Positions 11,206 through 41,113 of a DNA stretch of 41,113 bases are shown here, one piece after another. Made by a program: the position numbers and the translations under genes. Within the stretch, counting starts at the first letter, position 1, and every line of letters begins with the position of its first letter. The notes beneath the pieces were generated by a model that had not been told where the DNA came from, did no database searches, and was given only the letters and a program-made list of their open reading frames with translations. Origin of the DNA: an uncultured Dehalococcoidales bacterium (GTDB lineage: Bacteria; Chloroflexota; Dehalococcoidia; GIF9; AB-539-J10); contig CAZPDE010000002.1 in NCBI GenBank assembly GCA_964585315.1, forward strand, positions 1 to 41,113, given 5' to 3'.

Positions 11206-11225
11206 AATCGGTTTTCTTTATTTTT

Positions 11226-11481: not shown

Positions 11482-11483
11482 GG

Positions 11484-13825: not shown

Positions 13826-13828
13826 GTA

Positions 13829-21715: not shown

Positions 21716-21720
21716 TATGA

Positions 21721-27185: not shown

Positions 27186-28098
27186 TCCTCCTCTTTAAGA
27201 AAGCCATAGGCACCAATGTCACCATAAGAAGCAATAGCATAGCCAGCCAGAAGCTCTCCATGCCACCAAGGTTTATTGCCTCCAGCGAGGGGTAATATTG
27301 ATAGCTCCCATATCCAGAAGTACGTATGGCAATAGCGAGGACGAGAGGTAAAACTACGAAGGCTAAAGTGATGATGTCAAATTGGCTGAACCTTATTTCT
27401 TTGTAAAATGTTCTGGCATTCCCTTGCCCAAAAGCCCTTGATTCCATCGCCTCGGCAACCTGAACGGTGCGGTCTAAGCAGTTGGATAAAAGGGGGATCA
27501 AAATCGCAGCGCGCTTTTTAGCTTTCTGCAGCGCTCTCCCTTTATCCATTTCCACGCCTCGCGTTCTGTGCACATCAGTTAGACGCTCAATATCGGCGAT
27601 TAGGGTGGGAACAAATCGGGTGGAGAGCGAAGTTGCCAGCACCGATTTGTAAGGCAGCTTCATTCTTATCATCGCCAGCATTATATCATCGGGGTGGACA
27701 GTAAAATTGAGCATGGCGAAGGCAGATATGATAGTCAGCAACCGCAGCGCCATCATAGACCCAAAGAATATAGCCTCCAAGGTTACATTGAGTGGACCTA
27801 GTGCCGGAATTTCAAAGGGAGCTTCAAGCAAAACATGAGCGCCCTGGCTAACCACCAATGTATTTATAAAAACTATGAAGATTCCAAGGTAGAGTACTAA
27901 TTTTATGGAAGAAGCCCATTCCTTCCATATCTTTGCTATTGCTACCAGAGGCAGCGTCGAAAGAAAAAGGAGGAAAATATACAGGGGATTGTCAAAAATC
28001 AAGGCAAGAACCAAAATATTGGCAACCCATAGCAACTTACAAACGGGATTGAGTCGGTGAACCGGAGTGCCCTTGTCCTCGAACCTGAAACTTATCAT
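27172..28098 (-). CDS. ecfT: ECF-transporter T component (CbiQ family)
   Basis: 308 aa, multi-TM. The cytoplasmic coupling helices carry Arg motifs (LSTRFVPTL, VHRTRGVE). It overlaps both neighbours. Confidence 0.8.
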   Translation of the reverse strand: MISFRFEDKGTPVHRLNPVCKLLWVANILVLALIFDNPLYIFLLFLSTLPLVAIAKIWKEWASSIKLVLYLGIFIVFINTLVVSQGAHVLLEAPFEIPALGPLNVTLEAIFFGSMMALRLLTIISAFAMLNFTVHPDDIMLAMIRMKLPYKSVLATSLSTRFVPTLIADIERLTDVHRTRGVEMDKGRALQKAKKRAAILIPLLSNCLDRTVQVAEAMESRAFGQGNARTFYKEIRFSQFDIITLAFVVLPLVLAIAIRTSGYGSYQYYPSLEAINLGGMESFWLAMLLLLMVTLVPMAFLKRRIDLD

Positions 28099-29036
28099 AG
28101 AGGTATCCTGATTATCCCTCCATCCGCTATCACCACTGCAGAAGCATATTGAATCTGGGAATATTGGTTGACTAGAGCATCTGCGGCATTCTTTACTCCG
28201 GCCTCGTCTGTGCCAGACACCATCCAGACAACGGCCTCACAACTCCAGCTCCCTTTCGGATTCCAGATATTCTGAGTTGCTTGAATCACGCCACTCCCAG
28301 CTCCATATTCTGCCACAGCCTTACCCTTAGAGTTGAACGCCTGCAATTTACCATCCTTAAAGTGAGCAAATAAGCCAATCCGGTCATAGACCTCGTTGAG
28401 TTCTGCGATAAGCTCAAAATCCATGGTACACATAAGAATCAGGTTAGAATGCTCTTTCTCCTCATCTGATAGCTCGGCTGCATTAGTAACAGAAATCTCC
28501 TTCACTCCAAGTTCCTCGAGCTTGCTCTTAAGCCTTCCCGCTTCTCCTTCGAGGTTTCCGGAATAGACTACCACGGTAGGGGAGGCTTTCCCCCTATAAC
28601 CATGTAAGAATGGCTCAGGCAAATCACCTATGATGGCATTGCAGCCATGCATGATATAACTATAATCGTGGTAGTCCCAATGCTGCATATCACCAGACTG
28701 AAGTTTATAGCCTGAAGCGAATACATTGGCCATGATGCCATTGATGTAATAGAACCAATACTCTGTACTGGAACCGTAGAGGCCATCTATGCCCGCAACA
28801 TAGGTTCCTGCCTTCCTGAGTTCAGCCACCTGCCCCAGTGCTTTCTCAGCAGTAGTTCCTGCCATCACTGTGGCTGTTCTATCAAATATGAGCTCAGCGC
28901 CGAAGTCTCTGGTGGCTACCACTCTGACAGATATCTGCTCTGATGTTGGGGGAGGAGTGGTAGCACAGCCAGCCAACATGCCAGTAAGGACGAAAAGTAC
29001 AATAGCAACGGTTAGTATCTTCTTCATTTTTACCAT
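28095..29036 (-). CDS. Lipoprotein with a DUF4430 (transcobalamin-like C-terminal/beta) domain
   Basis: Lipobox LTGMLAGC. ISVRVVATRDFGAE...TEYWFYYINGIMANVFASGYKLQSGDMQHWDYHDY matches the DUF4430 pattern (W.Y.vNG....ga..Y.l..GD...W.Y). The C-terminal ~180 aa were not recognised. Confidence 0.7.
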   Translation of the reverse strand: MVKMKKILTVAIVLFVLTGMLAGCATTPPPTSEQISVRVVATRDFGAELIFDRTATVMAGTTAEKALGQVAELRKAGTYVAGIDGLYGSSTEYWFYYINGIMANVFASGYKLQSGDMQHWDYHDYSYIMHGCNAIIGDLPEPFLHGYRGKASPTVVVYSGNLEGEAGRLKSKLEELGVKEISVTNAAELSDEEKEHSNLILMCTMDFELIAELNEVYDRIGLFAHFKDGKLQAFNSKGKAVAEYGAGSGVIQATQNIWNPKGSWSCEAVVWMVSGTDEAGVKNAADALVNQYSQIQYASAVVIADGGIIRIPL

Positions 29037-29060: not shown

Positions 29061-31595
29061 TTATGTTCTGCCACGACGCCGTCCCAGGATGAAAATTATG
29101 ATAGCTGTAATTGCTAAAATACCGGCCACAATGCTTCCAATGAACGCCCAGAATGCCCAATCAAGCGACCCCGTATCTTCAGGAGGAACCGTCTCCTCAA
29201 CGGTAAATTCAGCAGTTTGTCCATCTACTTCAACCTCATAACTCCCGGCGTTTTCCCTGCTGACAGTAAAGGTTACTAACCGTTCTTCACCGGGAGTAAG
29301 TATCAGTTCCTCTACCGTCTCGACACCACCGCCTATTTTCAGAGACAGGCTATAGCTTCCCTCAGTCTCACCGGTGTTAGCCACAAGTACTGTAACAGTG
29401 ACATCTTCCCCCGGTCTTACTACTTCAGGAGTGACATCCAGGCTCTTAACTGTGAATGCTGCCGACGATGAGCTTGTCGTCCCACCCAGAATAGTGAATT
29501 GGGTGAAGTGTCTTACTCTAGCAGTAACAGTATTTTCAGCAATATCCGCCACGCTGTTTTCCAGGATAGCCCATTCGTTCTTGCTGGTATCAAAATAGGC
29601 TATCTTAAAATCCTCCTCTGTCACACCTTTCCAATCCGGTGATGTTACCTTGACGATGTCCGCGACATTGACGCTTCCATCGCAGTTCACATCCCATGCC
29701 ATGCTATCAGCCACAGGGACTTCATCATAATGTAAAGTCAAGGTAATCGGAGGCTCGAAAGTGGCTTTCTCAGGACCAATGTCATAGGTCAGCCCGATGG
29801 GACAGACATCTGGTGATACCGAAGGTGATTCGGTAACAGCTTCAATAGTTATTTGCTCCGGCGGTGTGCCCGATACAGTGAGAGCAATAGTTCTTTCGGG
29901 CAGCTTCAAATCCACTTTTTTGTCCGCTGAGGCAAGCTCTACTAGCTCCAGAACCCTGCCGCTAGCGTCAATTTTCCCTGTCAGTTCAATCACTCCCGGA
30001 GGCAGTCCTGCCTCCACTCGGAATGACCAGGCTCGGCGCGCCTGATTTCCTTCTATGTCTCTTACCCTTACCTCGATGCGGTGCTCGCTATTGGCCAGGG
30101 GTATTGCCGGAGTATAACTTGCTCGCGTCCCGGTGATTATAGCCTCTACCAATGTGCTATCTATCTTGACACTGACTGACGCCGTATCAATACCTGAGCC
30201 AGTGTCAGAATAAGCAGCGCTGATTGTTGGTGTTCCTGTATCCACCGTTGCTCCTGAAGGTGGGCTCAGGTTGCTGATGGTGGGAGGTGTAGTATCCGAA
30301 GCGGTTTCGGTATCCACAATAAAGCTCCATGCTTTGTAAGCCTTGTTCCCAGCCTGGTCATAAACGGTGAGTTGAGCACTCCTGGTGCCATCTGACAGAG
30401 CAGTGGTCGGAATATAGCTTATTCCTGTCTCGGTGACCGTGGTTTCTGAAGTTACATCAGCGCCATCTACCCTTAATGTCACTGAAGAACTGTCAATACC
30501 TGACAGAGCATCAGAATAAGCAGCGCTTATCGTTGGCTTTCCTGTATCCACGGTTGCCCCTGAAGATGGCTCTAAATCGCTTATCTTTGGGGATGAATTA
30601 TCCTTGACTATCTTCGTCGGCCAGTATTTCCCGACCAGGGGCGGCAGGATGTAAGATGTCATCCACTCAGGATTGTTATCAACGCCTTCTATCCAGTTGA
30701 AGCCACCGTCAGCTCGCTGGAGGCTCAGGGCGTGCTCTACCGGGTTGTTCCCGTTCTTTGTCCAATGTTCACCTGTAGGGTCTTGCCCGCAGGCACGAAT
30801 GGCAGCAATAGCACGAGCATCTGAGGCTACATCCGACTTGTCAGACATTCCAGCACAGGGAAACCCTCCATCATCAAGCTGCTCAGATTTAATAAAGTCC
30901 AGCCCATCTTGAATTGCCCGTGAGGATGGGCTTTGCCCGGCAGCAATCAGAGCCATGATAGCGTTAGCTGTATCGCATACATCACCAGCTCCTGCCGTAG
31001 TGCAGCCCCAGCCGCCGGCATCACTCTGGTTGGCTAAAATATAATTCTTACTCGCTTGGATGATTTCTGAACTGCGGCTTTCCCCCGCTCCAATTAAAGC
31101 AATGATACCCCAGAAATCATCGTTGATGAGCCCGGGCTTGCCAATCTGCTCTCCGTCAAACATGGCTTTTAGCCCACCTACAAAGTTCACCCCCCCGAAA
31201 TCCCACGGGTTTTCCCCGGCGGCAACAATGGCAGAAAGGTAATACTCGTAAGGTAGAGCCTCTTTCGTTTCCGGCGGCTGCGCCTCAAATGTAGCCTTGC
31301 TGCGAATGTAATCAACCACGGAGTTTCCACCCTTGCTATAGCTGTGGGTGTCTCTCCCACCGGCGTCAATAGCTACTATGGCATAGCAGCACATCTCTAC
31401 ATTCGATCCAATACTGCCATCAACATTCTGGCAGTCCTCTAAGTAATCTAATGCAGCCATTATTCGAGCATCGTTTGTGCTCAGTGGGTAGCTTGCTGCC
31501 AGGACTGGCATCGCCGCTGGCATCAGCAGGGCACAGAGCACCAGGATAACGAGCGGAATCCCCAGTATGCCTTTTAGCTTAGTTAGTTTTTCCAA
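29061..31595 (-). CDS. 844-aa membrane-anchored surface protein: prenyltransferase/terpene-cyclase-like alpha/alpha toroid, 2 Ig-like repeats, single dockerin-like Ca loop, CARDB-like domain, C-terminal TM
   Basis: Signal peptide MEKLTKLKGILGIPLVILV.... Recurrent QxxDGS(I/W)G-type repeats (NVDGSIG, DAGGWG, DDGGFP, ADGGFNW). Two units of about 95 aa (P.IS.L.P.SGATVDTG.PTISAAYSD..SGID..SV...). Then WDVNCDGSVNVADIV, CARDB-like TPEVVRPGEDVTVTVLVANTGETEGSY, and the tail IVAGILAITAIIIFILGRRRGRT. TTG start with an AAGGGGG Shine-Dalgarno sequence. Confidence 0.7.
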   Translation of the reverse strand: MEKLTKLKGILGIPLVILVLCALLMPAAMPVLAASYPLSTNDARIMAALDYLEDCQNVDGSIGSNVEMCCYAIVAIDAGGRDTHSYSKGGNSVVDYIRSKATFEAQPPETKEALPYEYYLSAIVAAGENPWDFGGVNFVGGLKAMFDGEQIGKPGLINDDFWGIIALIGAGESRSSEIIQASKNYILANQSDAGGWGCTTAGAGDVCDTANAIMALIAAGQSPSSRAIQDGLDFIKSEQLDDGGFPCAGMSDKSDVASDARAIAAIRACGQDPTGEHWTKNGNNPVEHALSLQRADGGFNWIEGVDNNPEWMTSYILPPLVGKYWPTKIVKDNSSPKISDLEPSSGATVDTGKPTISAAYSDALSGIDSSSVTLRVDGADVTSETTVTETGISYIPTTALSDGTRSAQLTVYDQAGNKAYKAWSFIVDTETASDTTPPTISNLSPPSGATVDTGTPTISAAYSDTGSGIDTASVSVKIDSTLVEAIITGTRASYTPAIPLANSEHRIEVRVRDIEGNQARRAWSFRVEAGLPPGVIELTGKIDASGRVLELVELASADKKVDLKLPERTIALTVSGTPPEQITIEAVTESPSVSPDVCPIGLTYDIGPEKATFEPPITLTLHYDEVPVADSMAWDVNCDGSVNVADIVKVTSPDWKGVTEEDFKIAYFDTSKNEWAILENSVADIAENTVTARVRHFTQFTILGGTTSSSSAAFTVKSLDVTPEVVRPGEDVTVTVLVANTGETEGSYSLSLKIGGGVETVEELILTPGEERLVTFTVSRENAGSYEVEVDGQTAEFTVEETVPPEDTGSLDWAFWAFIGSIVAGILAITAIIIFILGRRRGRT

Positions 31596-31653
31596 TTTCT
31601 ATTCCCCCTTTTCTTAAGAGAAGGCATAAAGCTCATCAGGCACTTTTATAAGA

Positions 31654-32073: not shown

Positions 32074-32076
32074 CTC

Positions 32077-32156: not shown

Positions 32157-32159
32157 TCC

Positions 32160-32333
32160 CTATTCACCCCAGTGAATGCCGATTATCACTATGTCCTGGG
32201 TATCAATGGTCCCGTCATTGTTAACATCCTCCCGAATCCAGCCCTGCGTTCCTTCCTCACCCCAGTGCATACCCACCAGGACAATATCCTGAGTGTCAAT
32301 CTCACCATCACAGTTCACATCCCAGTCAGGGCA
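32160..32333 (-). repeat. Dockerin-coding dispersed repeat, copy 1
   Basis: About 175 nt collinear with 35060..35233. My hand alignment gives about 20 mismatches and no indels. Confidence 0.85.
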
Positions 32334-34964
32334 GGTTGTGGAGCCGAATGCCCAAACCTTCCCCTCCGCAAGGGTAAACACGCTGCCATCAGCAACCGCC
32401 GGGGAGGAACCTCCGTGGTCGTAGTGCCATATCTCGCTACCGGTGGCGGCATCCAGAGCATAAATGCCCTGGTAGTCAAAATTCTCGCCACCGGGTTTGC
32501 CTACGAACACCTTGCCATCGGCTACTGCCACCGAGAGCGTCCAGTTGCCCACACCAAGGCTTGTCTCTGTCCATATCGGAGAACCATCCGAGGCATCAAA
32601 ACAGTAGGTATCGCCACCACCACTCCAGCCGCCGCAGACATAGACCCTGCCATCGGCATAAGCCGGGGTAGTATCAGTAGCCAGAATGGCAACAGGCCCC
32701 CAGACGAGACTGCCATTGGAAGCATCCAGTGCAACTAATTCCCCGAAACCGCCGAAGTTATAGGTAGTGATAAATACCTTGCCATCGGCAATACAGGCAG
32801 AGCCGCAGGTGTCCCAACCATAAGTTCCATCGGCCAGGCCATCGGAATGCCATATCTCTTCACCTGTATCTATGTCCACGCAGTAGACATGCCCGCCGAC
32901 ATATTCCCAACTGGTGAGATAAACCTTGCCGGCGGCATAGGCAGGGGTGCCCTGGGCATAACCAGGCACATCGAAGAACCACTCCTGGTCACCTGTAGTC
33001 TCATTCACACAGTAATAGCAGCCAGGTTTATCCCAGACGCCGGCAACGACCTTGCCGTCAGCAACCATAGGACCGCCGTCAACCGCACCTAAAGGAAATG
33101 TCCACAATGAAGGACCGCCGTCCTCGCTGAAGCAGTATAGCTGTGCTCCTGAGATGAACACCCTGCCGTCGTGATATGCCGGGGATGCCCACGACCCCAA
33201 ACAAGCGCCGCCCACGATGGGCTCGCTCCACAGGGTCGTGCCATTGGACTGGCTCAGGCAGGTAAGCGCGTCCCCGCAGTTCACGAAAACCTTGCCGTTG
33301 GCAACAACTGGAGATGAGCTAATTGCTGCGCCGATATTATCGCTCTCCCAGGCTAACTCATTTGTATCCGGTGCACCCGATAAGGAGCATCCGATGTGTG
33401 CCACATCCCCATGAAACTGCTCCCAGTCAGCCATTATCCCAAAATTAGCGGTAACCTCTTCATCCGAGTTTATGAGTATAGTCTCAGGATTCTGCCCGCC
33501 GCTCACGGCGCCGCTCCAGCCACTAAAGGCATAACCGCCATTTTGGTAGGCGGTTAAAGTTACCGTAGTACCGGGCTCATACTGGTTATTCGGAGTTCCG
33601 GGGTCCTGGTCGGGGGGATCGAGTATGGCTATGCCACCGCCCGCCGGGGCGATATTCACGGTGAGCGTATAGTAAACCGTAGGTTCTTCTACACCTGTGC
33701 CGGTGAGAGGAACTTCAACCATACCTTCATCGGGGTCGTTCGATGGTATGGATAAAACAGCTGATTTGCCGCCGAGCGCTGTCGGGCTGAACACCACCTC
33801 AAGGGTGGCTGAGCTATCCGGGACTATGGTCTGCCCTGAGCAGCTATCATTCTGAATCGAGAACTGGTCGGTATCCGCACCGGTTATGGCTATGGTGCCG
33901 ATAACTAAATCACCCATGCCGTCATTGGCGACGGTTACCGTGACAGGCAAGCTCGATGAGCCGACCTCCACATCGGGGAATTCAATAGATGTTGGGGTAA
34001 CCGTGATGTTGGGGGGAGGCGGAGCGTAGCGGAGGATGAGGCTTGTTTCCATCGCAAAGTCTCCTACGGCGAAGACATCATCAGGGGCACTTCCCCAGAT
34101 GCCGGAAAGGTCCCACATTAGATTGTCGCCCCCCATAAGGCTCCAGACGCTGCCATCATAGTGCATGATGGTGCCATAGTTTTGCCCCGGAGCGAAGACA
34201 TCATCATGGGCGCTCCCCCAGACATCCCGAATGTGCTGTGTTGTGCCGCTGTCCATGGGAGTCCAGGTGCTACCATCGTAGTGCAGAATGGTGCCTGAGC
34301 ATCCTACGGCGAAGACATCACCATGAGCGCTCCCCCAGACATCATTAAGGTTATATGTTGTGCCGCTGTCCATGGTGCTCCAGGCACTGCCATCGTAGTG
34401 CAGAATGGTGCCATTATATCCCGGGGCGAAGACATCGTCAGAGGCACTTCCCCAGACACCGGAAAGGGACTGCGTTGTGCCACTGTCCATGGTGCTCCAG
34501 GCGCTGCCATCGTAATGGAGGATGGTGCCCCAGCCTCCCACAGCGAAGACATCATTGGGGGCGCTTCCACAGACACCACAAATCCACTCCGTTGTGCCGC
34601 TGTCCATGGGAGCCCATGTATTGCCATCGTAATGGAGAATGGTGCCGCAGCTTCCCACAGCGAAGACATCATTGGGAGTGCTCCCCCAGATGTCCTTAAG
34701 GTCCCGTGTTGTGCTGCTGTCCATCTCAGCCCAGGCACTACTGCCATCGTAGTGCAGAATGGTTCCCCTTTCTCCTACGGCGAAGACATCATCGTGGGTA
34801 CTCCCCCAGACACCTCGGAGCGCTTCATCTGTTGTGCCGCTGTCCATGGGAACCCAGACACAATCGTCTGCCTGGACCGGGCTTGCCATCGGCACCAACA
34901 GAGCAAACAGCATCAGAACGGTAAGCAAAACCCCCAGAATTCCTTTTCCTTTAAGTTTTTTCAT
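32160..34964 (-). CDS. 934-aa secreted multidomain protein: 41-aa-repeat propeller, choice-of-anchor-D/ASH-like Ig domain, InlB-B-repeat-like domain, PQQ/BamB-like beta-propeller, C-terminal dockerin
   Basis: Signal peptide MKKLKGKGILGVLLTVLMLFALLVPMASPVQA. About seven units of WGS...DVFAVG..GTILHYDGS.W..MDSGTT. Then ITVTPTSIEFPDVEVGSS..VTVTVANDG.GDLVI. The propeller has repeated DGKVF/DGRVY...G.LWS blades. It ends CPDWDVNCDGEIDTQDIVLVGMHWGEEGTQGWIREDVNNDGTIDTQDIVIIGIHWGE. Confidence 0.75.
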   Translation of the reverse strand: MKKLKGKGILGVLLTVLMLFALLVPMASPVQADDCVWVPMDSGTTDEALRGVWGSTHDDVFAVGERGTILHYDGSSAWAEMDSSTTRDLKDIWGSTPNDVFAVGSCGTILHYDGNTWAPMDSGTTEWICGVCGSAPNDVFAVGGWGTILHYDGSAWSTMDSGTTQSLSGVWGSASDDVFAPGYNGTILHYDGSAWSTMDSGTTYNLNDVWGSAHGDVFAVGCSGTILHYDGSTWTPMDSGTTQHIRDVWGSAHDDVFAPGQNYGTIMHYDGSVWSLMGGDNLMWDLSGIWGSAPDDVFAVGDFAMETSLILRYAPPPPNITVTPTSIEFPDVEVGSSSLPVTVTVANDGMGDLVIGTIAITGADTDQFSIQNDSCSGQTIVPDSSATLEVVFSPTALGGKSAVLSIPSNDPDEGMVEVPLTGTGVEEPTVYYTLTVNIAPAGGGIAILDPPDQDPGTPNNQYEPGTTVTLTAYQNGGYAFSGWSGAVSGGQNPETILINSDEEVTANFGIMADWEQFHGDVAHIGCSLSGAPDTNELAWESDNIGAAISSSPVVANGKVFVNCGDALTCLSQSNGTTLWSEPIVGGACLGSWASPAYHDGRVFISGAQLYCFSEDGGPSLWTFPLGAVDGGPMVADGKVVAGVWDKPGCYYCVNETTGDQEWFFDVPGYAQGTPAYAAGKVYLTSWEYVGGHVYCVDIDTGEEIWHSDGLADGTYGWDTCGSACIADGKVFITTYNFGGFGELVALDASNGSLVWGPVAILATDTTPAYADGRVYVCGGWSGGGDTYCFDASDGSPIWTETSLGVGNWTLSVAVADGKVFVGKPGGENFDYQGIYALDAATGSEIWHYDHGGSSPAVADGSVFTLAEGKVWAFGSTTCPDWDVNCDGEIDTQDIVLVGMHWGEEGTQGWIREDVNNDGTIDTQDIVIIGIHWGE
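34064..34862 (-). repeat. Tandem coding repeat of about 123 nt (41 aa) x ~7
   Basis: Recurrent ggcgaagacatcat...gctcccccagac...tgtgccgctgtccatgg...ccatcgtagtgcagaatggtgcc. It creates long stop-free shadow ORFs on both strands. Confidence 0.8.
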
Positions 34965-34988
34965 TCAGTTCCTCCTTTTTTAAGATAA

Positions 34989-35045
34989 GGCACAAAGTTT
35001 GCTTAGAGCCAACTCCTCTGTGCCTCTGTGCCTCTGTATCTTTGC
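34989..35045 (-). promoter_or_regulatory. Conserved 57-nt leader/trailer element with hairpin (copy B)
   Basis: On the minus strand: gcaaagatacagaggcacagaggcacagaggagttggctctaagcaaactttgtgcc, immediately upstream of the AAGGAGG Shine-Dalgarno sequence of gene 32160..34964. The stem keeps pairing only through a G-U wobble on the minus-strand transcript. Confidence 0.5.
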
Positions 35046-35059
35046 CCCTCTGTACCTCT

Positions 35060-35233
35060 CTACTCCCCCCAGTGAATGCCGATTATCACTATGTCCTGGG
35101 TATCAATGTTTCCGTCACTGTTAACATCCTCTCGAATCCAGCCCGGTGTTCCAGACTCATCCCAGCGCATACCCACCAGGACAATATCCTGGGTGTCAAT
35201 ATCACCATCCTCATTCACATCCCAATCAGGGCA
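35060..35233 (-). repeat. Dockerin-coding dispersed repeat, copy 2
   Basis: See copies 1 and 3. Hand alignment gives about 20 mismatches in ~175 nt to each, with no indels. Confidence 0.85.
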
Positions 35234-37675
35234 GGGTCCGAGGGCGTAGAGATAACCAGCGTCGTTACCAAAATAGACCTTGCCTCCAGCAATTGCCATT
35301 CCTTGAAGAATATATTCCGGGTGGTCGGGCACATACTCCCACATCATATTCCCACTTCTATTAAAGCAGTACGCCGCTCCATCGGCAGCATCCGTCGTGA
35401 TATAAATATACGGCTCGCCATTCTGAATTGACAGCGCTGGAGAAGCCTCGGAGCCATACCCGTCGAAGAGATGACTCCAGAGCTGGCTGCCGTTTGACTC
35501 ATCAAAGCAGTACAGGCCGCCTGCCTTGCAGAAGCTGCCGCTGCAGACATAGACCTTCCCATCGTAAACCACTGGCGTGGAGGCACTATAATCGTCAATA
35601 GAAGCAAACCAACCATCTGAGGGTTTGAATTCTCCTGTGGAGGCATCGAACCCGATAGCAAACAGATAGCCATTCTTTGAGCTAAGATAGATGCGGCTGT
35701 TTGCTTCGTTGGTAGTGATAGCAGAGCGAACCCACCCCGCACTGATGCCATACTGGGTAGATAGGTTTAGCTCATTCACAAGGATGCCACTATTCTTATC
35801 TACGCTGGTTATCACCGAGGCAGTGTCGCCGAAGAGGAGGAAATCGCCGATTACCGCTGCCCCTGACCACCAGCTATAGCTCTTACCCCCAACATCATAG
35901 ATCCACACTATATTGGGGTCGGTACCATCGCCGGCAGCGTCAAGGCAATAATACTTTCCTTCCCAGCTACCGATATAGACCTTGCCGCCAGCATAGACTA
36001 TCTGGGTGGAGAGTTCTTCATCCTGTCCTGTCCCCTCGGTCAGTCTGCCACTCCACAAAATGCTCCCATTAGATTCATTAAGGGCATAAATGTACCCGGT
36101 GTCGGTGGCAAAGAAGACCTTGCCCTCTCCATAGGCTGGTGTAGCCAGGCTAAACCTGGGACCGGTGACTAGCGGTGTGCTCCACAGCATGTCTCCATTT
36201 TCAGCATCAAACGCCCATGCATATTCATCAACATCGATGACAAAGACTTTCCCGTTAGCTACAATAGGCGTGACATCTATGCCGTGGGTGCTGGCATAAT
36301 GGGTAAAAACGCTCCAGGCAACCCCAGGGGAAGTTACCGGCGCTGCCTCCGTGGTTTTGCCGCTGTTTATCTCATCTTTCTGAAACTGTGGCCAACCCTG
36401 TATCTCAGCAGGATTCTCAAGAGAGTAAATGTAACCGCTGCAGGTTCCCAGAAAGACAGCCCCGCCCGAGATGGCAGCCCCTTGAAGAATATAGGCATCA
36501 TCCGGCGGGTTCCATTTCCAGGCTAGAGTTCCATCATCTTTCAGACAATATAGAAATCCATCATCCATGGAAGTAGGGAAGTAAATATATGCCCCCTCTT
36601 CATGGATAGACAAAGCGGGGGAGGACTTCACACCACCTTCCACCGGGTAAGTCCATATGATTTCACCGCTGGCGTCATCAAGACAAATAAGGTTACCGGG
36701 GCATCCGTGCTCCCCCTGCCCTACATAGACCTTCCCCTCATATATCACCGGAGTCGAGGTGCTGAACCCTATGGGAACACTCCATCCCTGATCAAAGAAT
36801 TCTCCTGTAACTGGATTAAAGCCGACTTTCCATATATATCCTGTATCCAGGGATGATTCAGATGTGGTATATACATATCCATTATGATAGGCTACCGAGG
36901 CTCGAATTCTGCCCGCGTCCGGCCTGGGAAATGATATCTCTGAACCGGTTAGAGCAAGCTCGTCAACCAATTCCCCCGTATTCTTGTTGACACAGGTAAG
37001 GACACTCTCGCTGTTACCAAAGACCAGATAATTTTCCACCACAGAGACACCACACCAGAGGTAGCCGGCAGTGGACGCAGAGTATTCCCAGAGAATGTTG
37101 CCATCGGTATCAAGGCAATAGTAGCTGTTGGTTTCACCACCTGTCCCTCCTCCGCCGATATAGATTTTGTGGTTCTGATAAGTTATGGGACATTGAAAGC
37201 CACGCTGGCTGACTTCCTTGCCCCAAAGTTCATTGCCCGTTAAGGCATCAAAAGCAAATAGAAAACCATCGAAAGTGGCTACAAAGAGTTTGCCATCGCC
37301 GTAGGCTGGTGTCGAGGTCTGAAGCCCACCATGACCAGTGATACTCTTTTGCCACTTGATTTCACCACTCTTCTTGTCGAACGCCCACAGCCCATCGCCG
37401 GCGTGTATATAAACCATATCACCGGCAATGATTGGCACTACCTCTATGCCGATGCCGCCGCTGTGGTAGGTAAATTGGCTCCAGGTCATTACTGGATAAT
37501 CCGTCGGCGCCCAATCGCTAGTCTTGCCGCTGTTAACCTCATCCTTCTGGAACTGAGGCCAGTCTGTAGTGGTTGGAGGTTCATCTGCCTGGACAATCGC
37601 ACCCAGGGCAGCCACCATAATAAACAGTGTCACCACCGCCGCAACCAATAACCTGTAGTTAAATGCATGAATCAT
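35060..37675 (-). CDS. 871-aa secreted protein with two tandem PQQ/BamB-like beta-propellers and a C-terminal dockerin
   Basis: Signal peptide ...MVAALGAIVQA. Each half opens with (D/G)WPQFQKDE(V/I)NSGKT. There are many blades of the type DG(K/D).(Y/F)(V/I)...G.(L/I)(Y/F)(A/C)(L/F)D...G...W. It ends CPDWDVNEDGDIDTQDIVLVGMRWDESGTPGWIREDVNSDGNIDTQDIVIIGIHWGE. Confidence 0.75.
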   Translation of the reverse strand: MIHAFNYRLLVAAVVTLFIMVAALGAIVQADEPPTTTDWPQFQKDEVNSGKTSDWAPTDYPVMTWSQFTYHSGGIGIEVVPIIAGDMVYIHAGDGLWAFDKKSGEIKWQKSITGHGGLQTSTPAYGDGKLFVATFDGFLFAFDALTGNELWGKEVSQRGFQCPITYQNHKIYIGGGGTGGETNSYYCLDTDGNILWEYSASTAGYLWCGVSVVENYLVFGNSESVLTCVNKNTGELVDELALTGSEISFPRPDAGRIRASVAYHNGYVYTTSESSLDTGYIWKVGFNPVTGEFFDQGWSVPIGFSTSTPVIYEGKVYVGQGEHGCPGNLICLDDASGEIIWTYPVEGGVKSSPALSIHEEGAYIYFPTSMDDGFLYCLKDDGTLAWKWNPPDDAYILQGAAISGGAVFLGTCSGYIYSLENPAEIQGWPQFQKDEINSGKTTEAAPVTSPGVAWSVFTHYASTHGIDVTPIVANGKVFVIDVDEYAWAFDAENGDMLWSTPLVTGPRFSLATPAYGEGKVFFATDTGYIYALNESNGSILWSGRLTEGTGQDEELSTQIVYAGGKVYIGSWEGKYYCLDAAGDGTDPNIVWIYDVGGKSYSWWSGAAVIGDFLLFGDTASVITSVDKNSGILVNELNLSTQYGISAGWVRSAITTNEANSRIYLSSKNGYLFAIGFDASTGEFKPSDGWFASIDDYSASTPVVYDGKVYVCSGSFCKAGGLYCFDESNGSQLWSHLFDGYGSEASPALSIQNGEPYIYITTDAADGAAYCFNRSGNMMWEYVPDHPEYILQGMAIAGGKVYFGNDAGYLYALGPCPDWDVNEDGDIDTQDIVLVGMRWDESGTPGWIREDVNSDGNIDTQDIVIIGIHWGE

Positions 37676-37690
37676 TGCGTAACTTCTCCT

Positions 37691-37815
37691 GTTATTGCGA
37701 GCCCTTCGACATCTGTCATTCTAGCGTAGCGGAGAATCTCATAATGCTCAGGGCAGCCTCTGTGAAGCAATCTCATCTTACAGATTGCTTCGTCGCACGC
37801 TCCTCGCAATGACAT
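37691..37815. repeat. Copy of the ttattgcgagc/gtcattcta repeat family
   Basis: ttattgcgagcccttcg, tgtcattctagcgtagcggagaatctc, ctcagggcagcctctgtgaagcaatct-catcttac-agattgcttc (hairpin), and ctcctcgcaatgac. Confidence 0.8.
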
Positions 37816-37874
37816 AACACGGTTACTTCACAAAATACTATTTATTTCGCGCTAAAAGGTCTACATCCTCTCTA

Positions 37875-38390
37875 TTAATACCTTGCCCTCCTTCGCCGCA
37901 AGACGAATACCAGAATTATCACTGCCACTATAGCCACCCCTATCGCCACTAGCAACATCAAGCTTGGCATACCTGATATGTGGATATAGGTTGGCACCTT
38001 TATTCCAGTGCCAATCGCCAGTCCCTCGCCCGGAGGCAAGGAAACTACACAAATGTGAGCCTCATGCTCTCCTGAAGCAATTAACGGTGGCTTAATGCTT
38101 ATCTCTATTGCCTCCTTCCCCTGGGCAGGCAGCACAAATTCCTCGGGTTCTATGGTAAACCAACCTTCATACTTTTCTTCCTCCACATATACCTTATAAT
38201 TGGATTCCTCATTTCCAGTATTGGTGATGCCTAACATGGCAGTGGCAGAACCTCCACGAGAAACCTCCATATTAAGCTTCTCAGGAGATACTCCCAATCC
38301 TATTGCCAGTGCTGGAGCTGTAACCAGGAACAAGGACAATGCAACGAGCAACAATAGAAAGTTACCGACTATCTTTCTCGACATTTTCAC
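37875..38390 (-). CDS. Small signal-peptide protein with a beta-sandwich-like ectodomain and a C-terminal TM anchor plus RRRR tail
   Basis: 171 aa: MKMSRKIVGNFLLLLVALSLFLVTAPALA, then GVSPEKLNMEVSRGGSATAMLGITNTGNEESNYKVYVE..., ending LMLLVAIGVAIVAVIILVFVLRRRRARY. The family is not firmly recognised. Confidence 0.5.
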   Translation of the reverse strand: MKMSRKIVGNFLLLLVALSLFLVTAPALAIGLGVSPEKLNMEVSRGGSATAMLGITNTGNEESNYKVYVEEEKYEGWFTIEPEEFVLPAQGKEAIEISIKPPLIASGEHEAHICVVSLPPGEGLAIGTGIKVPTYIHISGMPSLMLLVAIGVAIVAVIILVFVLRRRRARY

Positions 38391-38408
38391 TCCCTTCTAA
38401 AAGTGCTA

Positions 38409-38442
38409 ATATACGGAGGGGGAGGTAACCCCCTCCGTATAT
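38409..38442 (-). terminator. Perfect 14-bp stem-loop between the cohesin gene and the small anchored-protein gene
   Basis: AATATACGGAGGGGG-aggtaa-CCCCCTCCGTATAT. The stem spans 38409..38422 and 38429..38442. On the minus strand it is followed by ttagcacttttag. Confidence 0.45.
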
Positions 38443-38491
38443 ACACAGACTGCGCTGTGACTTTTTACATCTCTTCATTCATGGTGAAGAG

Positions 38492-39682
38492 CTATGGGGT
38501 TACCTCTGCCCAGAAGATCAGCGTACCTTCTACAGTGCCGAGGCCGGCATAGGTCGCTCCAACATGGAGAGCGGCATCGGTCGTTGTGTTGCCACCCTTG
38601 GCAATAGTTGCACCGTAGACATCCCACAGGGCAATATCCAGCCACAAGCCATCAACATACAGGCTATCAGCAGTTGCATCGGCGGTAACATCCACCGATT
38701 TACCACCCAGGTTGGTGATGGTTATGGTGTGCGGGTCACTGATGTCCCCCGCTACCAGCTCACCGAAGTCAATACTGGTGGGGTCAACGATGATGGAGAC
38801 TGCTGGCAGTATCGTCGCCGTCAGGATTGTTGAAGAAGGAGTCTCTCCTGTGGTAACGAAGGTCGTGTCGCTCCCATAGCTAGTGCCCTCGCCAACCGCC
38901 TTTGCCTTGAAGTGATAGGTGGTGCCAGGGATTAAGCCACTCAGGGCAGCGCTGAATGCTCCGGTAGATGTCATTGTCTCCGAAGTAGTCTCATCGCCGT
39001 AAGCGGTAGAGGTTCCCCATTCAAAGGAAACATCAACGCTCGATGCTGTGCCCAGGTTATCGAGAGTACCATTTAGGGTGGCTACTTCATCGCCTACACC
39101 AGTGGCAGCATTAGTGGTTACCGTTGGGGCTGTGCCACTAGCGCCTACCACCACCTCGCCGTTATTTATCACCAGGCCTGCTATTTCATTTCCCTGGTCA
39201 TCGATTACTTCCACGCCAAGCAAGGTGAGGGGAGATGCGCCACTCACTCCTGTCTTAGCTTGCATATGGATTACAGCAAACGAGCCTGTCCCGGTTGGTC
39301 CACCTGAGTCACCACCCAGGATGGAACAGCTTAAATCGCCTACCGTTCCCTGTCCCTGGTTATTAAAGTTATTAAAGAAGGTGGAGCCACTATGCGTGGT
39401 AGCCCAATCACTGTAGAAAGTTCCCTCATCTACACTCACAAACTCCACCAGGCCAGCATCGAAACTCATATAGCACTGTGCCCCTCGCGAAGCAACATCG
39501 GCGCTAACCATGATGGTAACATCAAAAGTATCTCCTGGATTTACCGTCTGAGTGTCTGGTGAGACGCTCATGCCCGAGTCCGGATTTGCCAATGCCGGCG
39601 TTACCGACACCAGCAGGGTGCAGACCATCAGGGCGGTGAGCAAAACTCCCAGAATCCCTTTTCCTTTAGTTAGTTTACCCAT
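38492..39682 (-). CDS. Secreted cohesin-domain protein (cohesin, Fn3-like module, C-terminal beta-sandwich)
   Basis: Signal peptide MGKLTKGKGILGVLLTALMVCTLLVSVTPALA. The cohesin-like module is MSVSPDTQTVNPGDTFDVTIMVSADVASRGAQCYMSFDAGLVEFVSVDEGTFYSDW...SFAVIHMQAKTGVSGASPLTLLGVEVIDDQGNEI. The Fn3-like module is PTVTTNAATGVGDEVATLNGTLDNLG...VSFEWGTSTAYG...GLIPGTTYHFKAKA. No TM or other anchor is visible. Confidence 0.7.
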   Translation of the reverse strand: MGKLTKGKGILGVLLTALMVCTLLVSVTPALANPDSGMSVSPDTQTVNPGDTFDVTIMVSADVASRGAQCYMSFDAGLVEFVSVDEGTFYSDWATTHSGSTFFNNFNNQGQGTVGDLSCSILGGDSGGPTGTGSFAVIHMQAKTGVSGASPLTLLGVEVIDDQGNEIAGLVINNGEVVVGASGTAPTVTTNAATGVGDEVATLNGTLDNLGTASSVDVSFEWGTSTAYGDETTSETMTSTGAFSAALSGLIPGTTYHFKAKAVGEGTSYGSDTTFVTTGETPSSTILTATILPAVSIIVDPTSIDFGELVAGDISDPHTITITNLGGKSVDVTADATADSLYVDGLWLDIALWDVYGATIAKGGNTTTDAALHVGATYAGLGTVEGTLIFWAEVTP

Positions 39683-39857
39683 TTAATTCCTCCTTATTTT
39701 GGATTACTTTGATAGAGTAACCTTTAAGGTTACCCCCGCGAGGTCAAAGCCTCGCACCGCATTTCCGGTGTCTTTTTTAATTGAGTTTCTCTTTATTATC
39801 ACCTCCTTTCAGTATTCCAGAATCAGCCGCGCGACCTGCGGCTTGAAACAAACAATG

Positions 39858-40031
39858 CTACTCACCCCAGTGCATGCCGATTATCACTATGTCCTGAGTA
39901 TCAATGTCTCCGTCATTGTTAACATCCTCTCTTATCCAGCCCTGTGCGCCACTCTCGCCCCAGTGCATACCCACCAGGACAATATCCTGGGTGTCAATAT
40001 CGCCATCCTCATTCACATCCCAATTGGGGTA
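39858..40031 (-). repeat. Dockerin-coding dispersed repeat, copy 3
   Basis: Collinear with 32160..32333 and 35060..35233. Hand alignment to copy 2 gives about 20 mismatches in ~173 nt with no indels. Confidence 0.85.
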
Positions 40032-41113
40032 AGCGCCGGCGCAGGTAAACTCAGGCGTCGGCCACTGATACATGCTGCTCCTGGTATCTATCTCAGCATA
40101 GGGGTAATATGTCCCTTCGTCGTTCCAGGTTACGGTCAAATCGCCGCCGCTGTTGGTGAAACCCTGGGATACGCCCGGGTCATACAAAATGGCGCTGACA
40201 AGCACCTCGGCGTTTTCCACATCTGTCGTGGTGCCGTTCCCATCGGTCCAGGTCACACTGAAGGTGATGTCCTCTCCCGGTATGATGCTCGTCTTATCAA
40301 CCGCCATCAGCAGTTGGTAATATCCCAGCGTATAATTGAACCAATGTACGCTGTCGTCGGATACTAGTGGATACTGGTCAGCACCTACTCCAGGCGTTAC
40401 TTCGTTAACCGCATACATCCAGCAATTCTCATCGGCGGTGCTATCTCCAATCTGAACCACATAGGGACCCCAGCCACCCTCAGTTACCTCGATATTGATA
40501 GTATTTTCCTGGCAGTAGCATATCAGGGCGCCCATCGCGGTTTGCGTGTCTACGGTAATACCGTCTTCGGTGATGGTGCCTCCGGGAACGCTGTAGCCGA
40601 TGACATCGAAGAGGTCTCCAGCAACACCCGTAGTCCGCAGGTCAACCAAGACTGCTGGTGCGCCGACTTCAATGACGCGGTCAACAGCCATATCAGTGAT
40701 CAGGGTATTGCCACCTTCCAGTCGCTCGGCATCAGCAGGCAAGTTGAGTCCGGTGCTGTATTCCCAGACTATGACGCCGGCAGAATCTATCTCGATGACG
40801 CGGTTACCGTCCATATCGGTAATCAGGGTATTGCCATCTGCCAGCCGCTCGGCATCGGCAGGGCCGACGAGACCAGTGCTGTATTCCCAGACTATGCTGC
40901 CGGCAGAGTTTACCTCAATTACTCGTTTGCTCTGCCAGTCGGTAATCAGCGTATTATCATTTGCCAGTCGCTCGGCATCCATTAGGCAACTGGACCCAGC
41001 GTTGTATTCCCAAGCTATGAGGCCGGCAGAGGTTACCTCAATGACACGATTGTTACTGCAGTCGGTAATCAGCGTATTATCATTTGCCAGTCGCTCGGCA
41101 TCCATTGGGTAAT
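39858..41113 (-). CDS. 5'-partial secreted protein: 41-aa beta-propeller repeats, DUF4430 (transcobalamin-like beta) module, Ig-like module, C-terminal dockerin
   Basis: The frame stays open to the window edge. It has four or more units of DAERL..(D/G)NTLITD....RVIE(V/I).SAG.I.WEY. DUF4430 pattern: ITVDTQTAMGALICYC...GGWGPYVVQIGD...NCWMYAVNEVTPGVGADQYPLVSDDSVHWFNY. It ends YPNWDVNEDGDIDTQDIVLVGMHWGESGAQGWIREDVNNDGDIDTQDIVIIGMHWGE. Confidence 0.75.
   Translation of the reverse strand, partial: YPMDAERLANDNTLITDCSNNRVIEVTSAGLIAWEYNAGSSCLMDAERLANDNTLITDWQSKRVIEVNSAGSIVWEYSTGLVGPADAERLADGNTLITDMDGNRVIEIDSAGVIVWEYSTGLNLPADAERLEGGNTLITDMAVDRVIEVGAPAVLVDLRTTGVAGDLFDVIGYSVPGGTITEDGITVDTQTAMGALICYCQENTINIEVTEGGWGPYVVQIGDSTADENCWMYAVNEVTPGVGADQYPLVSDDSVHWFNYTLGYYQLLMAVDKTSIIPGEDITFSVTWTDGNGTTTDVENAEVLVSAILYDPGVSQGFTNSGGDLTVTWNDEGTYYPYAEIDTRSSMYQWPTPEFTCAGAYPNWDVNEDGDIDTQDIVLVGMHWGESGAQGWIREDVNNDGDIDTQDIVIIGMHWGE

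Follow-up and report, generated by a model that had tools for sequence, protein, structure and literature searches.

The cohesin-dockerin cluster described here lies in a 41,113-nucleotide stretch of DNA (the window) from an uncultured Dehalococcoidales bacterium, and its cargo and conserved neighbours suggest a specific function, capture of corrinoids or tetrapyrroles: the cluster would trap cofactors of the vitamin B12 type at the cell surface and would not be a machinery for degrading cellulose. The fuller reading, in which the locus is a capture layer for corrinoids, possibly for haem or another tetrapyrrole, that is tethered through cohesin and dockerin modules and feeds an ECF importer, has in our judgement about an even chance of being right. 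The initial annotation of this DNA had interpreted the locus as a self-contained surface scaffold-plus-clients assembly, an interpretation that is partly supported by our results. The non-cellulosomal cohesin-dockerin set with its non-carbohydrate cargo is genuine, but the locus is not self-contained, since it continues past the end of the window to a set of seven dockerin proteins and its gene order runs downstream into a toroid/DUF4430/ECF (CbrT-like) operon. The initial annotation had neither linked this operon to the cluster nor proposed a particular function.

The cohesin protein and its dockerin-tagged clients

All open reading frames of the cluster are present, and they lie on the minus strand, as do all other features given below. 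The cohesin protein (396 aa, 38492..39682) consists of a signal peptide, a cohesin, an FN3-like domain and a conserved C-terminal Ig-like domain. Its cohesin module (residues 39-179, 39146..39568) matches Pfam PF00963 at 39.5 bits (gathering score 24.1; E 7.9e-10), and a profile built from 10 orthologues of the protein matches the solved cohesins 1g1k, 2vn5 and 5n5p. The AlphaFold model, with block-mean pLDDT mostly 67-87 within the module, finds mainly cohesins as its best PDB matches by Foldseek, including 2w1n (cohesin plus FN3 of C. perfringens GH84C), and resembles the A. fulgidus non-cellulosomal cohesin 2xdh (TM 0.65) and 6kgc (TM 0.71). The protein ends in ...FWAEVTP and no C-terminal transmembrane segment was found in it, so the earlier description of a secreted cohesin protein with no membrane anchor holds. 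Because there is a single cohesin per protein, however, it is an adaptor or anchor for competing clients rather than a multi-site scaffold.

Two tethers had been suggested for this protein, and one of them survives. The small surface protein encoded at 37875..38390 (171 aa) has a signal peptide, a HYDIN/ASH-like Ig domain (Pfam) and a C-terminal transmembrane helix followed by RRRRARY, and it is a reasonable candidate for the membrane tether because in three related loci, L002, L007 and L023, the gene immediately after that of the cohesin protein encodes its orthologue (54-70% identity). In another, L010, this position is taken by a longer protein of 367 aa that is likewise anchored in the membrane at its C-terminus. 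The other suggested tether, an 844-aa protein discussed below, has only one dockerin-like Ca loop (about 29645-29696) and a toroid.

Three dockerin clients are encoded in the window, and a 99.7% identical contig, L001, carries four further dockerin genes upstream of these, giving seven in all and a count of at least seven dockerin proteins. The GC content of the cluster is 0.50-0.55, higher than the window average. The 5' end of client 1 (39858..41113; Pfam DUF4430, Dockerin_1 and Arylsulfotran_2-like repeats) is cut by the window edge, but its full length of 548 aa is seen in L001 (7126-8772) and in P0130, where a signal peptide is followed by a propeller (ASST/NHL-like) built from 123-nt (41-aa) repeats, a DUF4430 plus Ig-like module and the dockerin. 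Client 2 (871 aa, 35060..37675) has two PQQ_2 propellers, which match BamB in a PDB sequence search, and a dockerin; it is a two-gene fusion, each half being orthologous to a gene that stands by itself in the related loci L002, L007 and L010. Client 3 (934 aa, 32160..34964) begins with about seven copies of a 117-nt (39-aa) repeat, an array that adds to the cargo named before, and continues with a choice-of-anchor D Ig domain (76 bits against a cut-off of 45), Flg_new_2, one PQQ_2/BamB-like propeller and a dockerin. All of the cargo domains that had been named are present, together with Flg_new_2, and BamB-like propellers make up the bulk of the cargo.

The DUF4430 module is carried by two dockerin clients. 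In client 1 (40041..40658) its AlphaFold model, which includes the Ig-like part, has block-mean pLDDT of 89-98 over residues 1-200. In a Foldseek search it matched best the DUF4430 structure 3u7z, the beta domain of human transcobalamin (5no0/5np4, TM 0.70), haptocorrin (4kki), 2bb6 and 2pmv. The dockerin-tagged DUF4430 module is therefore predicted to share its fold with the beta domain of transcobalamin, haptocorrin and intrinsic factor.

Concerted evolution of the dockerin modules

The dockerin modules of clients 1, 2 and 3 (39861..40028, 35063..35230 and 32163..32330) share 85-89% protein identity with one another; that of client 1 is made of two 22-residue DVNxDGxIDTQDIV..G.HWGE segments. 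The shared module that the initial annotation had recognised is confirmed, although its length is 54-56 aa and not 57. Against the Pfam Dockerin_1 gathering score of 22.9 bits, two of the three clients lie above the threshold (24.6 bits in the 934-aa protein, 24.4 bits in the 415-aa fragment) and the 871-aa protein lies under it (16.5 bits). A profile of 17 such modules matches solved dockerins, first 2y3n_B (E 7e-11) and then 2b59_B, 1ohz_B and 2ccl_B. In the single-chain model of client 1 the dockerin part is of low confidence, with pLDDT of 40-60.

The dockerins evolve in concert. Aligned at the DNA level over 165-167 nt, with no gaps or only a few, the modules of the three window genes are 86-92% identical; the similarity ends abruptly upstream of the module, which bears out the earlier observation that this DNA is better conserved than the rest of the genes. 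The seven paralogous dockerins show a synonymous divergence of 0.2-0.56 from one another (0.21 at the lower end), whereas that of the alignable propeller domains in the same genes runs from 1.3 to saturation; therefore the conservation exceeds protein-level constraint. Positions 10, 11, 13, 14 and 18 of the module vary between genomes (e.g. TQ.IV, IL.VV, IA.VG and VL.LS) but within any one genome they agree to 78-91% among the paralogues and between the two segments of each dockerin. In type I dockerins the cohesin-contact positions are 10, 11, 17 and 18. The propellers, in contrast, follow orthology, with 55-81% identity to their orthologues in other genomes versus 29-67% to paralogues in the same genome.

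The downstream operon and what the locus may capture

Downstream of the cluster lies the 844-aa membrane-anchored protein (29061..31595), in which Pfam finds a prenyltransferase/SQHop-type alpha/alpha toroid, two Big_13 domains and CARDB between a signal peptide and a C-terminal transmembrane helix. By analogy it resembles one half, the alpha-like one, of a split transcobalamin-type binder more than it does a tether, its relation to the transcobalamin alpha domain being one of fold class only; Pfam Cobalamin_bind has no match in the protein and one weak match (E 0.009) in an archaeal relative. The proposed beta-like half is a DUF4430 lipoprotein (28095..29036; lipobox LAGC, Pfam DUF4430 48 bits), whose gene adjoins those of the ECF transporter: the T component of the CbiQ family (27172..28098), the fused ATPases EcfA-EcfA' (25509..27185; TIGR04520 and TIGR04521 above cut-offs) and a CbrT-like S component (24775..25512; Pfam ECF_trnsprt). 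In this genome, 93 nt downstream of the S-component gene, follows a gene for the ATP:corrinoid adenosyltransferase CobA/BtuR (24133..24681; PF02572, E 2e-61), and about 3 kb further downstream lies a decayed second copy with 73% nucleotide identity to it (21325..21769), left as N-terminal and C-terminal fragments in different frames.

In the window, L002 and L010, which are all three of the related loci with downstream DNA, the cohesin cluster is followed in the same order by the genes for the toroid protein, the DUF4430 lipoprotein, EcfT and EcfAA', with EcfS next where the DNA reaches that far. The cohesins of L002 and of L010, a Dehalococcoidia MAG, are 65% and 45% identical to that of the window, and their toroid proteins, in the same position, 71% and 41%. 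The L002 contig stops after a Dph6-like gene that comes next to the gene for its S component.

This conservation bears on the strongest competing explanation, to which we assign a smaller but real share of probability, namely that the envelope is decorated with propeller and Ig-rich adhesins for particles or partner cells, and that the ECF genes are neighbours in a shared surface-protein island with no shared function. Cohesin/dockerin proteins of ANME archaea and their sulfate-reducing partners in syntrophic consortia have been read as adhesins, highly expressed and horizontally exchanged; the wider cohesin family (30-40% identity) is found in many unrelated contexts, in MAGs of Dehalococcoidia, 'Deltaproteobacteria', Methanosarcinales, Hadarchaeota and Thermoplasmata. 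The cargo has adhesin-like domains (choice-of-anchor D, Flg_new_2, CARDB-type), BamB-like propellers are protein-interaction scaffolds, and the GC content of the cluster is raised. General display, however, does not readily account for a specific cargo set (propeller A, propeller B, DUF4430-Ig) that is orthologous across lineages and whose order with the operon is maintained down to 45% cohesin identity. Neither does it account for the recurrence of propeller, toroid and DUF4430 beside importers of the B12/haem class where cohesin and dockerin are absent. This is seen in two loci of archaea, one of them ANME-1, where CARDB repeats, toroid and PQQ_2 propeller are joined in one protein of 2124 or 2284 aa that adjoins separate DUF4430 proteins, a PQQ_2 protein and ExbB-like genes; these loci also hold a BtuF-class Peripla_BP_2 protein, of the kind that binds the substrate in B12/haem/siderophore transporters, and an ArsR-DUF4430 regulator, so that DUF4430, a small-ligand-binding fold, is even fused to a regulator. 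Fusion proteins of propeller and DUF4430 are encoded in L010 (795 aa) and L020 (1261 aa), and in L017 the same cargo occurs together with a FecCD/Peripla_BP_2 importer.

It is unlikely, although less so than an enzymatic role, that the same architecture serves haem or another metallo-tetrapyrrole or metallophore instead of a corrinoid. The only experimentally studied bacterial toroid/DUF4430/ECF operon, lsa1836-1840 of L. sakei, is tied to haem uptake and not to B12, with the same gene order and accessory proteins, and its S component lacks cobalamin-binding residues, as its authors note. The alternative FecCD/Peripla_BP_2 importers carry B12, haem or siderophores alike, and a search for a cobalamin riboswitch or any other Rfam family gave no match in the operon region at E values as high as 1 or, at the gathering threshold, in four related loci. 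Against haem, the corrinoid-specific CobA adjoins the S-component gene, with its decayed copy nearby, and cultured members of the Dehalococcoidia are auxotrophic for corrinoids and make little use of haem. The sole significant PDB sequence match of the S component is 6FNP chain A (E 8.6e-11), taken to be CbrT by its 182-aa length and its 'Membrane protein' label; 6FNP is the vitamin B12 importer ECF-CbrT, which binds cobalamin or cobinamide with an affinity in the nanomolar range and does not bind haem (PMC5997447).

An extracellular multi-enzyme complex, with the propellers acting on an external substrate as PQQ-dependent dehydrogenases or arylsulfotransferase-like enzymes, would fit the cellulosome paradigm of enzymes borne on dockerins, the Pfam names PQQ, PQQ_2 and Arylsulfotran_2 and weak matches to methanol dehydrogenase and tetrathionate hydrolase, but it is very improbable, since all quinoprotein/BamB equivalog models score far under their cut-offs (e.g. 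PQQ_enz_alc_DH 97 bits versus 480), the propellers are BamB-like units of about 370 aa versus about 600 aa in quinoproteins, the ASST match spans just 33 residues of a repeat, and none of the seven clients was found to contain a catalytic domain of any kind.

Proposed model and comparison with known systems

In the corrinoid-capture model that we prefer, the clients would be ligand-capture modules on the cell surface, not enzymes, that work with the importer encoded directly downstream. The small Ig-like protein with its C-terminal anchor would tether the secreted, anchorless cohesin protein to the membrane. From the identity of the modules and their signature of co-evolution, the single cohesin of the latter is predicted to engage one dockerin-tagged protein at a time, out of a set of at least seven, and to depend on Ca for this. 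Gene conversion may keep the dockerins matched to one cohesin, and new cargo could therefore be plugged in by module shuffling. The clients would comprise the BamB-like beta-propellers, whose capture role is a guess on our part, and the two DUF4430 proteins with a predicted transcobalamin-type beta-domain fold. Below them the toroid protein and the DUF4430 lipoprotein may jointly resemble a split transcobalamin, followed by the ECF transporter with its CbrT-like S component and, in this genome, by the adenosyltransferase, both by homology. We speculate that scarce corrinoids, or perhaps haem or a different tetrapyrrole, are caught by the tethered outer modules, passed on to the toroid/DUF4430 pair and from there delivered to the S component, to be imported at the expense of ATP, after which CobA would adenosylate the salvaged corrinoid.

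Dockerin-tagged transporter binding proteins have been reported in ANME archaea (PMC9012536). The order of the window operon (alpha-like, beta-like, T, AA', S) is that of lsa1840-1836 in L. sakei, which encode an ECF-like system whose accessory proteins resemble transcobalamin and in which Lsa1840 would be the analogue of the 844-aa toroid protein.

The cohesin protein and its dockerin clients

The gene at 38492..39682 (minus strand) encodes a 396-aa protein with a signal peptide, a cohesin module, an FN3-like domain and a conserved C-terminal Ig-like domain. The cohesin module, residues 39-179, matches Pfam PF00963 with an E-value of 7.9e-10 and 39.5 bits against a gathering score of 24.1, and a ten-orthologue cohesin profile matches the solved cohesins 1g1k, 2vn5 and 5n5p. 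An AlphaFold model of the module, a jelly-roll beta-sandwich, has block-mean pLDDT values mostly of 67-87. Cohesins predominate among its best Foldseek matches (TM up to 0.71 relative to the target), which include 2w1n, the cohesin-FN3 structure of C. perfringens GH84C, and 2xdh, a non-cellulosomal cohesin of Archaeoglobus fulgidus. Since both the profile and the structural matches are to cohesins, the gene neither misses the cohesin models nor shows another fold, and the initial annotation, which had called it a cohesin, is upheld, as are the coordinates of the locus genes, all of which are on the minus strand. No transmembrane or wall anchor is present in the 396-aa protein, and its anchor is probably a separate transmembrane protein, not an SLH or sortase-dependent one. 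No sequence similarity was found between its C-terminal Ig-like domain and the small transmembrane protein of 171 aa (37875..38390). A cellulosome can be dismissed, because there is a single cohesin per protein and no GH or CBM family was found in the scanned proteins of the locus.

The window truncates this locus. A metagenome contig, L001, which is 99.7% identical over 12.6 kb, extends it upstream, gives the full length of the window-edge client (548 aa) and adds four further dockerin genes, encoding three single-propeller proteins and a second DUF4430 protein. This brings the locus to one cohesin with no fewer than seven dockerin clients. The proposal of a self-contained locus with three dockerin clients in view has to be abandoned on both sides, as L001 extends it upstream and an ECF operon follows downstream.

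All three dockerin-tagged neighbours in the window end in a module built of two segments of about 22 residues (DVNxDGxIDTQDIV..G.HWGE). This two-segment build agrees with the first description of the module, whose length is 54-56 aa and not 57 aa. The EF-hand-like loop (D-x-N-x-D-G-x-I-D-x-x-D) followed by a helix, in tandem, was read in the three window genes and in seven L001 genes. Two of the window genes exceed the Dockerin_1 (PF00404) threshold of 22.9 with 24.6 and 24.4 bits; the third stays below it with 16.5 bits but is 85-87% identical to the other two. Furthermore, a profile of 17 dockerin modules from several genomes matches solved dockerins (E 7e-11), which bears out the claim that the three neighbours carry C-terminal dockerins. 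Two helices are predicted in the dockerin part of the model, where pLDDT is just 40-60. We consider it very probable that the locus encodes a real cohesin-dockerin system.

The dockerins and the domains that they tag have evolved in different ways. Between pairs of the seven dockerins, synonymous divergence amounts to 0.21-0.56; in these genes, the propeller domains that can be aligned range from 1.3 to saturation. Comparison of five genomes reveals that each has its own dockerin flavour: segment positions 10, 11, 13, 14 and 18 differ between genomes and are 78-91% uniform within a genome, across all paralogues and both segments, while positions 4, 7, 15 and 16 vary freely. In type I dockerins, the cohesin contacts lie at positions 10, 11, 17 and 18. 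The propellers, by contrast, track orthology, with 55-81% identity to orthologues elsewhere versus 29-67% to paralogues at home. Such a pattern is to be expected if every dockerin has to fit one co-evolving cohesin. The genome-specific contact residues are the best indirect evidence in the sequences and suggest that the dockerins bind the co-encoded cohesin; a dual binding mode would agree with the matching of the two segments. Seven dockerins evolving with one cohesin offer a clean natural case in which specificity stays matched while the cargo is shuffled.

Sequence sharing is also found outside the dockerins. Genes that are unrelated in other respects, among them the cohesin gene, have signal-peptide DNA with up to 91% identity, and leaders of about 180 nt are common to four L001 genes, again including the cohesin gene. 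Neither these leaders nor a further leader class with GGCACARA repeats is conserved upstream of the orthologues in three related loci on other contigs (L002, L007 and L010), which reflects duplication or conversion within the genome and not to a conserved RNA element. The signal peptides of the cohesin, the clients and the toroid protein have the common sequence MGKLTKGKGILGVLLTALMVCALLVP (window 39608-39684, 34893-34969 and 31521-31597; L001 gene starts), and the Cys in their hydrophobic core, which does not form a canonical lipobox, is nearly invariant across orthologues. Spacers after dockerin genes (window 32092-32157 and 35015-35059; L001 intergenic regions) contain about eight copies of a tandem 8-mer, CTTTGTGC on the plus strand and GGCACARA on the gene strand, followed by a common motif, CTCTAAGCAAACTTTGTGCCTTA.

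A four-helix-bundle protein of the 23S rRNA IVP family, weakly bAvd-like, is encoded inside the cluster (31717-32073, minus strand), and a 75-aa version occurs in L002 (3243-3470). A diversity-generating retroelement was considered and rejected: the Avd model scores 26 bits against a cut-off of 80, the repeat search found no template/variable repeat pair, and no reverse transcriptase is present among the scanned window ORFs of at least 100 aa. Elsewhere in the window, three dispersed pairs of 60-65-nt repeats with 77-90% identity (18071-18135/20311-20375, 11274-11336/16968-17030 and 3325-3385/13889-13949) may be small mobile or regulatory elements.

Propellers, DUF4430 modules and the toroid protein

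The cargo described in the initial annotation, namely PQQ_2 propellers, a choice-of-anchor D domain, DUF4430 and a 41-aa-repeat propeller, is confirmed by our searches, which add Flg_new_2 and a 39-aa-repeat array. The propellers do not qualify as PQQ-dependent dehydrogenases: they fall far under the cut-offs of quinoprotein models (TIGR03075, 97 bits versus 480), and among solved structures BamB scaffold proteins are nearest to them in sequence. These BamB-like propellers are probably binders, and their role is the weakest step of our model. The 871-aa client (35060-37675, minus strand) is a double propeller, a fusion of two propeller genes. Its halves are 55-81% identical to separate genes, each with its own dockerin, in three related loci: L002 (1888-3054 and 6046-7224), L007 (7952-9187 and 9468-10577) and L010 (12479-13630 and 13918-15084). 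The two genes are fused as in the window in a further locus, L020 (8314-10902). Propellers A and B thus appear to be a conserved pair, which may work as a heterodimer. The GC content of the client genes (window 32001-36000) is 0.535-0.548, well over the window mean of about 0.47, which could reflect horizontal acquisition or the Gly/Ala/Asp/Trp-rich composition of propellers.

Pfam DUF4430 is present both in a lipoprotein and in clients, and the fold match rests on the client module. The DUF4430-Ig module of the window-edge client (40041..40658) is modelled with block-mean pLDDT values of 89-98 over the first 200 residues. Its Foldseek matches include 3u7z, a bacterial DUF4430 structure, and the beta domain of human transcobalamin (TM 0.70), as well as haptocorrin, rat and bovine transcobalamin and intrinsic factor. 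A PDB sequence search with the DUF4430 lipoprotein gave no matches. The second DUF4430-dockerin client (L001 5305-6948) carries near its N terminus a domain of some 240 aa (residues ~30-270), which is without Pfam or NCBIfam match and is also found in P0135, a protein of L007.

The 844-aa toroid protein (29061..31595, minus strand) combines an alpha/alpha toroid from the prenyltransferase/SQHop class with Ig domains, CARDB and a transmembrane helix at the C terminus. It has no match to Cobalamin_bind, and the analysis suggests a relationship to the transcobalamin alpha domain by fold class only. Between its Ig domains and CARDB lies a half-dockerin, one EF-hand loop and helix (WDVNCDGSVNVADIVKV...EEDFKIAYFD; window 29645-29696), which is conserved in L002 (~9317) and L010 (~17262). 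Some Foldseek matches to MG domains and, separately, a weak TED match would fit an alpha2-macroglobulin/complement-like system with the toroid as thioester domain and DUF4430-Ig as MG domains. We reject this reading: the 844-aa protein has no thioester CGEQ motif in its sequence, and DUF4430 finds its best matches among beta domains of the transcobalamin family.

The downstream operon and related loci

Directly downstream of the cluster and on the same strand lie genes for the toroid protein, the DUF4430 lipoprotein, EcfT, a fused EcfA-A', an ECF S component and CobA/BtuR. The ECF components are recognized by a CbiQ match, by TIGR04520 and TIGR04521 above their cut-offs, and by ECF_trnsprt. 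The sole significant solved relative of the S component is 6FNP chain A (E 8.6e-11), the next S component being at E 0.08; we take this chain to be CbrT from its length and label. The original prediction of CbrT rested on cobalamin riboswitch control. In the operon region here, no cobalamin riboswitch or other Rfam match was found, either at the gathering score or at E-values up to 1. A scan for promoters and terminators performed no better than on shuffled sequence. The 6FNP structure is that of ECF-CbrT, through which L. delbrueckii imports vitamin B12 and cobinamide (PMC5997447).

A decayed second CobA/BtuR is located at 21325-21769 (minus strand), just past a Dph6-like gene and about 3 kb beyond the intact CobA (24133-24681), to which it has 73% nucleotide identity; its N- and C-terminal fragments are in different frames. 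Between the ECF S and Dph6-like genes, the intact CobA together with a pair of ABC-2 transporter genes (22451-24041) resembles a later insertion. A DUF7839 winged-helix regulator heads the cohesin cluster in L007 (two copies, 1115-2861) and L010 (4853-5635). The window homologue (14487-15296, minus strand), with 45-52% identity and more than 20 kb from the cluster, is a candidate regulator.

The order of cohesin/propeller cluster, toroid, DUF4430 and ECF genes is also found in L002, whose cohesin is 65% identical, and in L010, from a MAG labelled Dehalococcoidia, whose cohesin is 45% identical. It is conserved in all three loci that have downstream DNA (the window, L002 and L010), the contigs of L007 and L023, another related locus, ending too early. 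A scan of metagenome contigs yielded 46 more cohesin loci, mostly 30-40% identical and in other contexts. The importer link thus belongs to this cohesin subfamily and not to the whole family. Some relatives come from MAGs with the label Deltaproteobacteria, but L010 and one named homologue, P0038, make it probable that the source organism of the window is Dehalococcoidia-like.

The same modules recur in other arrangements. L010 and L020 each encode a protein in which propeller and DUF4430 are joined. In L020, from a MAG labelled Deltaproteobacteria, the cohesin protein (3810-6242) carries the 39-aa repeats of the window's 934-aa client together with an SLH anchor, and a 1261-aa protein (10922-14707) consists of a PQQ_2 propeller, CARDB, two DUF4430 and three SLH; in both proteins the SLH wall anchor is at the end. 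These modules have clearly been shuffled between lineages. In L017, the same cargo adjoins a FecCD/Peripla_BP_2 importer. Two archaeal loci, one of them in an ANME-1 genome, have DUF4430-Ig homologues. In each, a PQQ_2 propeller, an alpha/alpha toroid and CARDB repeats are joined in a single protein of 2124 or 2284 aa, whose neighbours are an ArsR-DUF4430 regulator, a Peripla_BP_2 binding protein, ExbB-like genes and stand-alone DUF4430 and PQQ_2 proteins. Comparison of these loci therefore reveals a recurrent triad of propeller, toroid and DUF4430 with an importer of the B12/haem/siderophore class, held together in three ways: by cohesin-dockerin pairing, by SLH anchoring or by covalent fusion. 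In the ANME-1 locus L070 (767-1270), the ArsR-type HTH is fused to DUF4430 and adjoins propeller, toroid and DUF4430 genes, a fusion which suggests that DUF4430 can act as a small-ligand sensor.

Possible function and comparison with known systems

The module identities, the concerted evolution of the dockerins, the gene order, the DUF4430 fold and the CbrT-like S component are direct results of this study. The mechanism that we propose goes further. The cohesin protein would be held by the small transmembrane protein that consistently follows it and would bind the clients one at a time; a corrinoid or some other tetrapyrrole caught by the clients would move on to the toroid/DUF4430 pair and from there to the ECF importer, and CobA would adenosylate the imported product. 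Whether the cluster serves tetrapyrrole capture with the adjacent importer is, in our judgement, an evenly balanced question. The fullest version, a 'corrinoid-some' in which a cohesin adaptor with exchangeable capture modules, its propellers being a new tetrapyrrole-binding or cofactor-stripping class, works with a split transcobalamin that feeds an ECF importer, is speculative and we regard it as rather unlikely.

One alternative is that the ligand is haem rather than a corrinoid. The sole studied homologous operon, L. sakei lsa1836-1840, is ECF-like with transcobalamin alpha/beta-like accessories and has been experimentally linked to haem (bioRxiv 10.1101/864751); the missing riboswitch and a toroid-alpha relation by fold class only also count against the corrinoid model. 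On the corrinoid side stand the CbrT-type importer and the corrinoid adenosyltransferase of this genome. An adhesive role is a further alternative, since the literature reads related cohesin/dockerin proteins as adhesins, including those of sediment consortia; against it can be set the conserved order of cluster and importer.

What cohesin-dockerin pairs do outside cellulosomes has been asked ever since bacterial and archaeal examples were catalogued. The present locus offers a concrete, testable function because four lines converge: a client set that is defined and conserved, a link at the level of fold to vitamin B12 carrier proteins, a gene order kept with a CbrT-type importer plus the adenosyltransferase, and archaeal propeller-toroid fusions beside DUF4430 genes together with bacterial propeller-DUF4430 fusions. 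If tetrapyrrole capture holds for corrinoids, it would be a new scavenging route for cofactor-dependent anaerobes, including Dehalococcoidia, which matter in bioremediation, and ANME archaea, and would assign a role to three very common modules listed as unknown, PQQ_2-like propellers, DUF4430 and secreted prenyltransferase-like toroids. Should the 'corrinoid-some' prove true, it would be the first defined physiological role for non-cellulosomal cohesin-dockerin systems and would show how wall-less, corrinoid-dependent anaerobes compete for B12.

Like the pairs of A. fulgidus, C. perfringens GH84C and toxin, and ANME and their sulfate-reducing partners, this system has single cohesins, type I-like duplicated dockerins and secreted non-cellulolytic proteins, and dockerin-tagged transporter binding proteins are present in ANME genomes (PMC9012536). 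Unlike those pairs, it has a defined client set of BamB-like propellers and DUF4430 proteins, orthologous across lineages and tied in order to an importer operon; searches of the accessible literature turned up no account of such a client set tied to such an importer. As with SdbA and OlpA/OlpC of C. thermocellum, one cohesin on a surface-attached protein would receive dockerin partners, although the multi-cohesin scaffoldin, CAZymes and CBM of cellulosome anchoring are absent. ECF systems are normally without extracytoplasmic accessory proteins. The window resembles ECF-CbrT of L. delbrueckii (6FNP; PMC5997447) in its EcfT, EcfA/A' and homologous S component, and differs in having a dedicated instead of a shared ECF module, fused ATPases, extracytoplasmic toroid and DUF4430 accessories and a substrate that is predicted. 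With L. sakei lsa1840-1836 it shares the five-gene order of alpha-like toroid, beta-like DUF4430, T, AA' and S, although that system lacks the cohesin-dockerin layer, the propellers and the extra DUF4430 clients. Mammalian transcobalamin, intrinsic factor and haptocorrin have the DUF4430 beta-domain fold, and here an alpha/alpha-toroid protein is encoded adjacent; unlike in those carriers, the halves are separate proteins, sequence identity is 10-16%, the toroid-alpha link is one of fold class and the ligand is putative. BtuG and BtuH of Bacteroides are propeller-based, high-affinity surface lipoproteins that capture B12 and feed a dedicated importer; the likeness drawn to them is one of concept, and envelope and transporter type differ. 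The parts, that is, non-cellulosomal pairs, ECF-CbrT and the toroid/DUF4430 pair, are known separately, and their combination is new.
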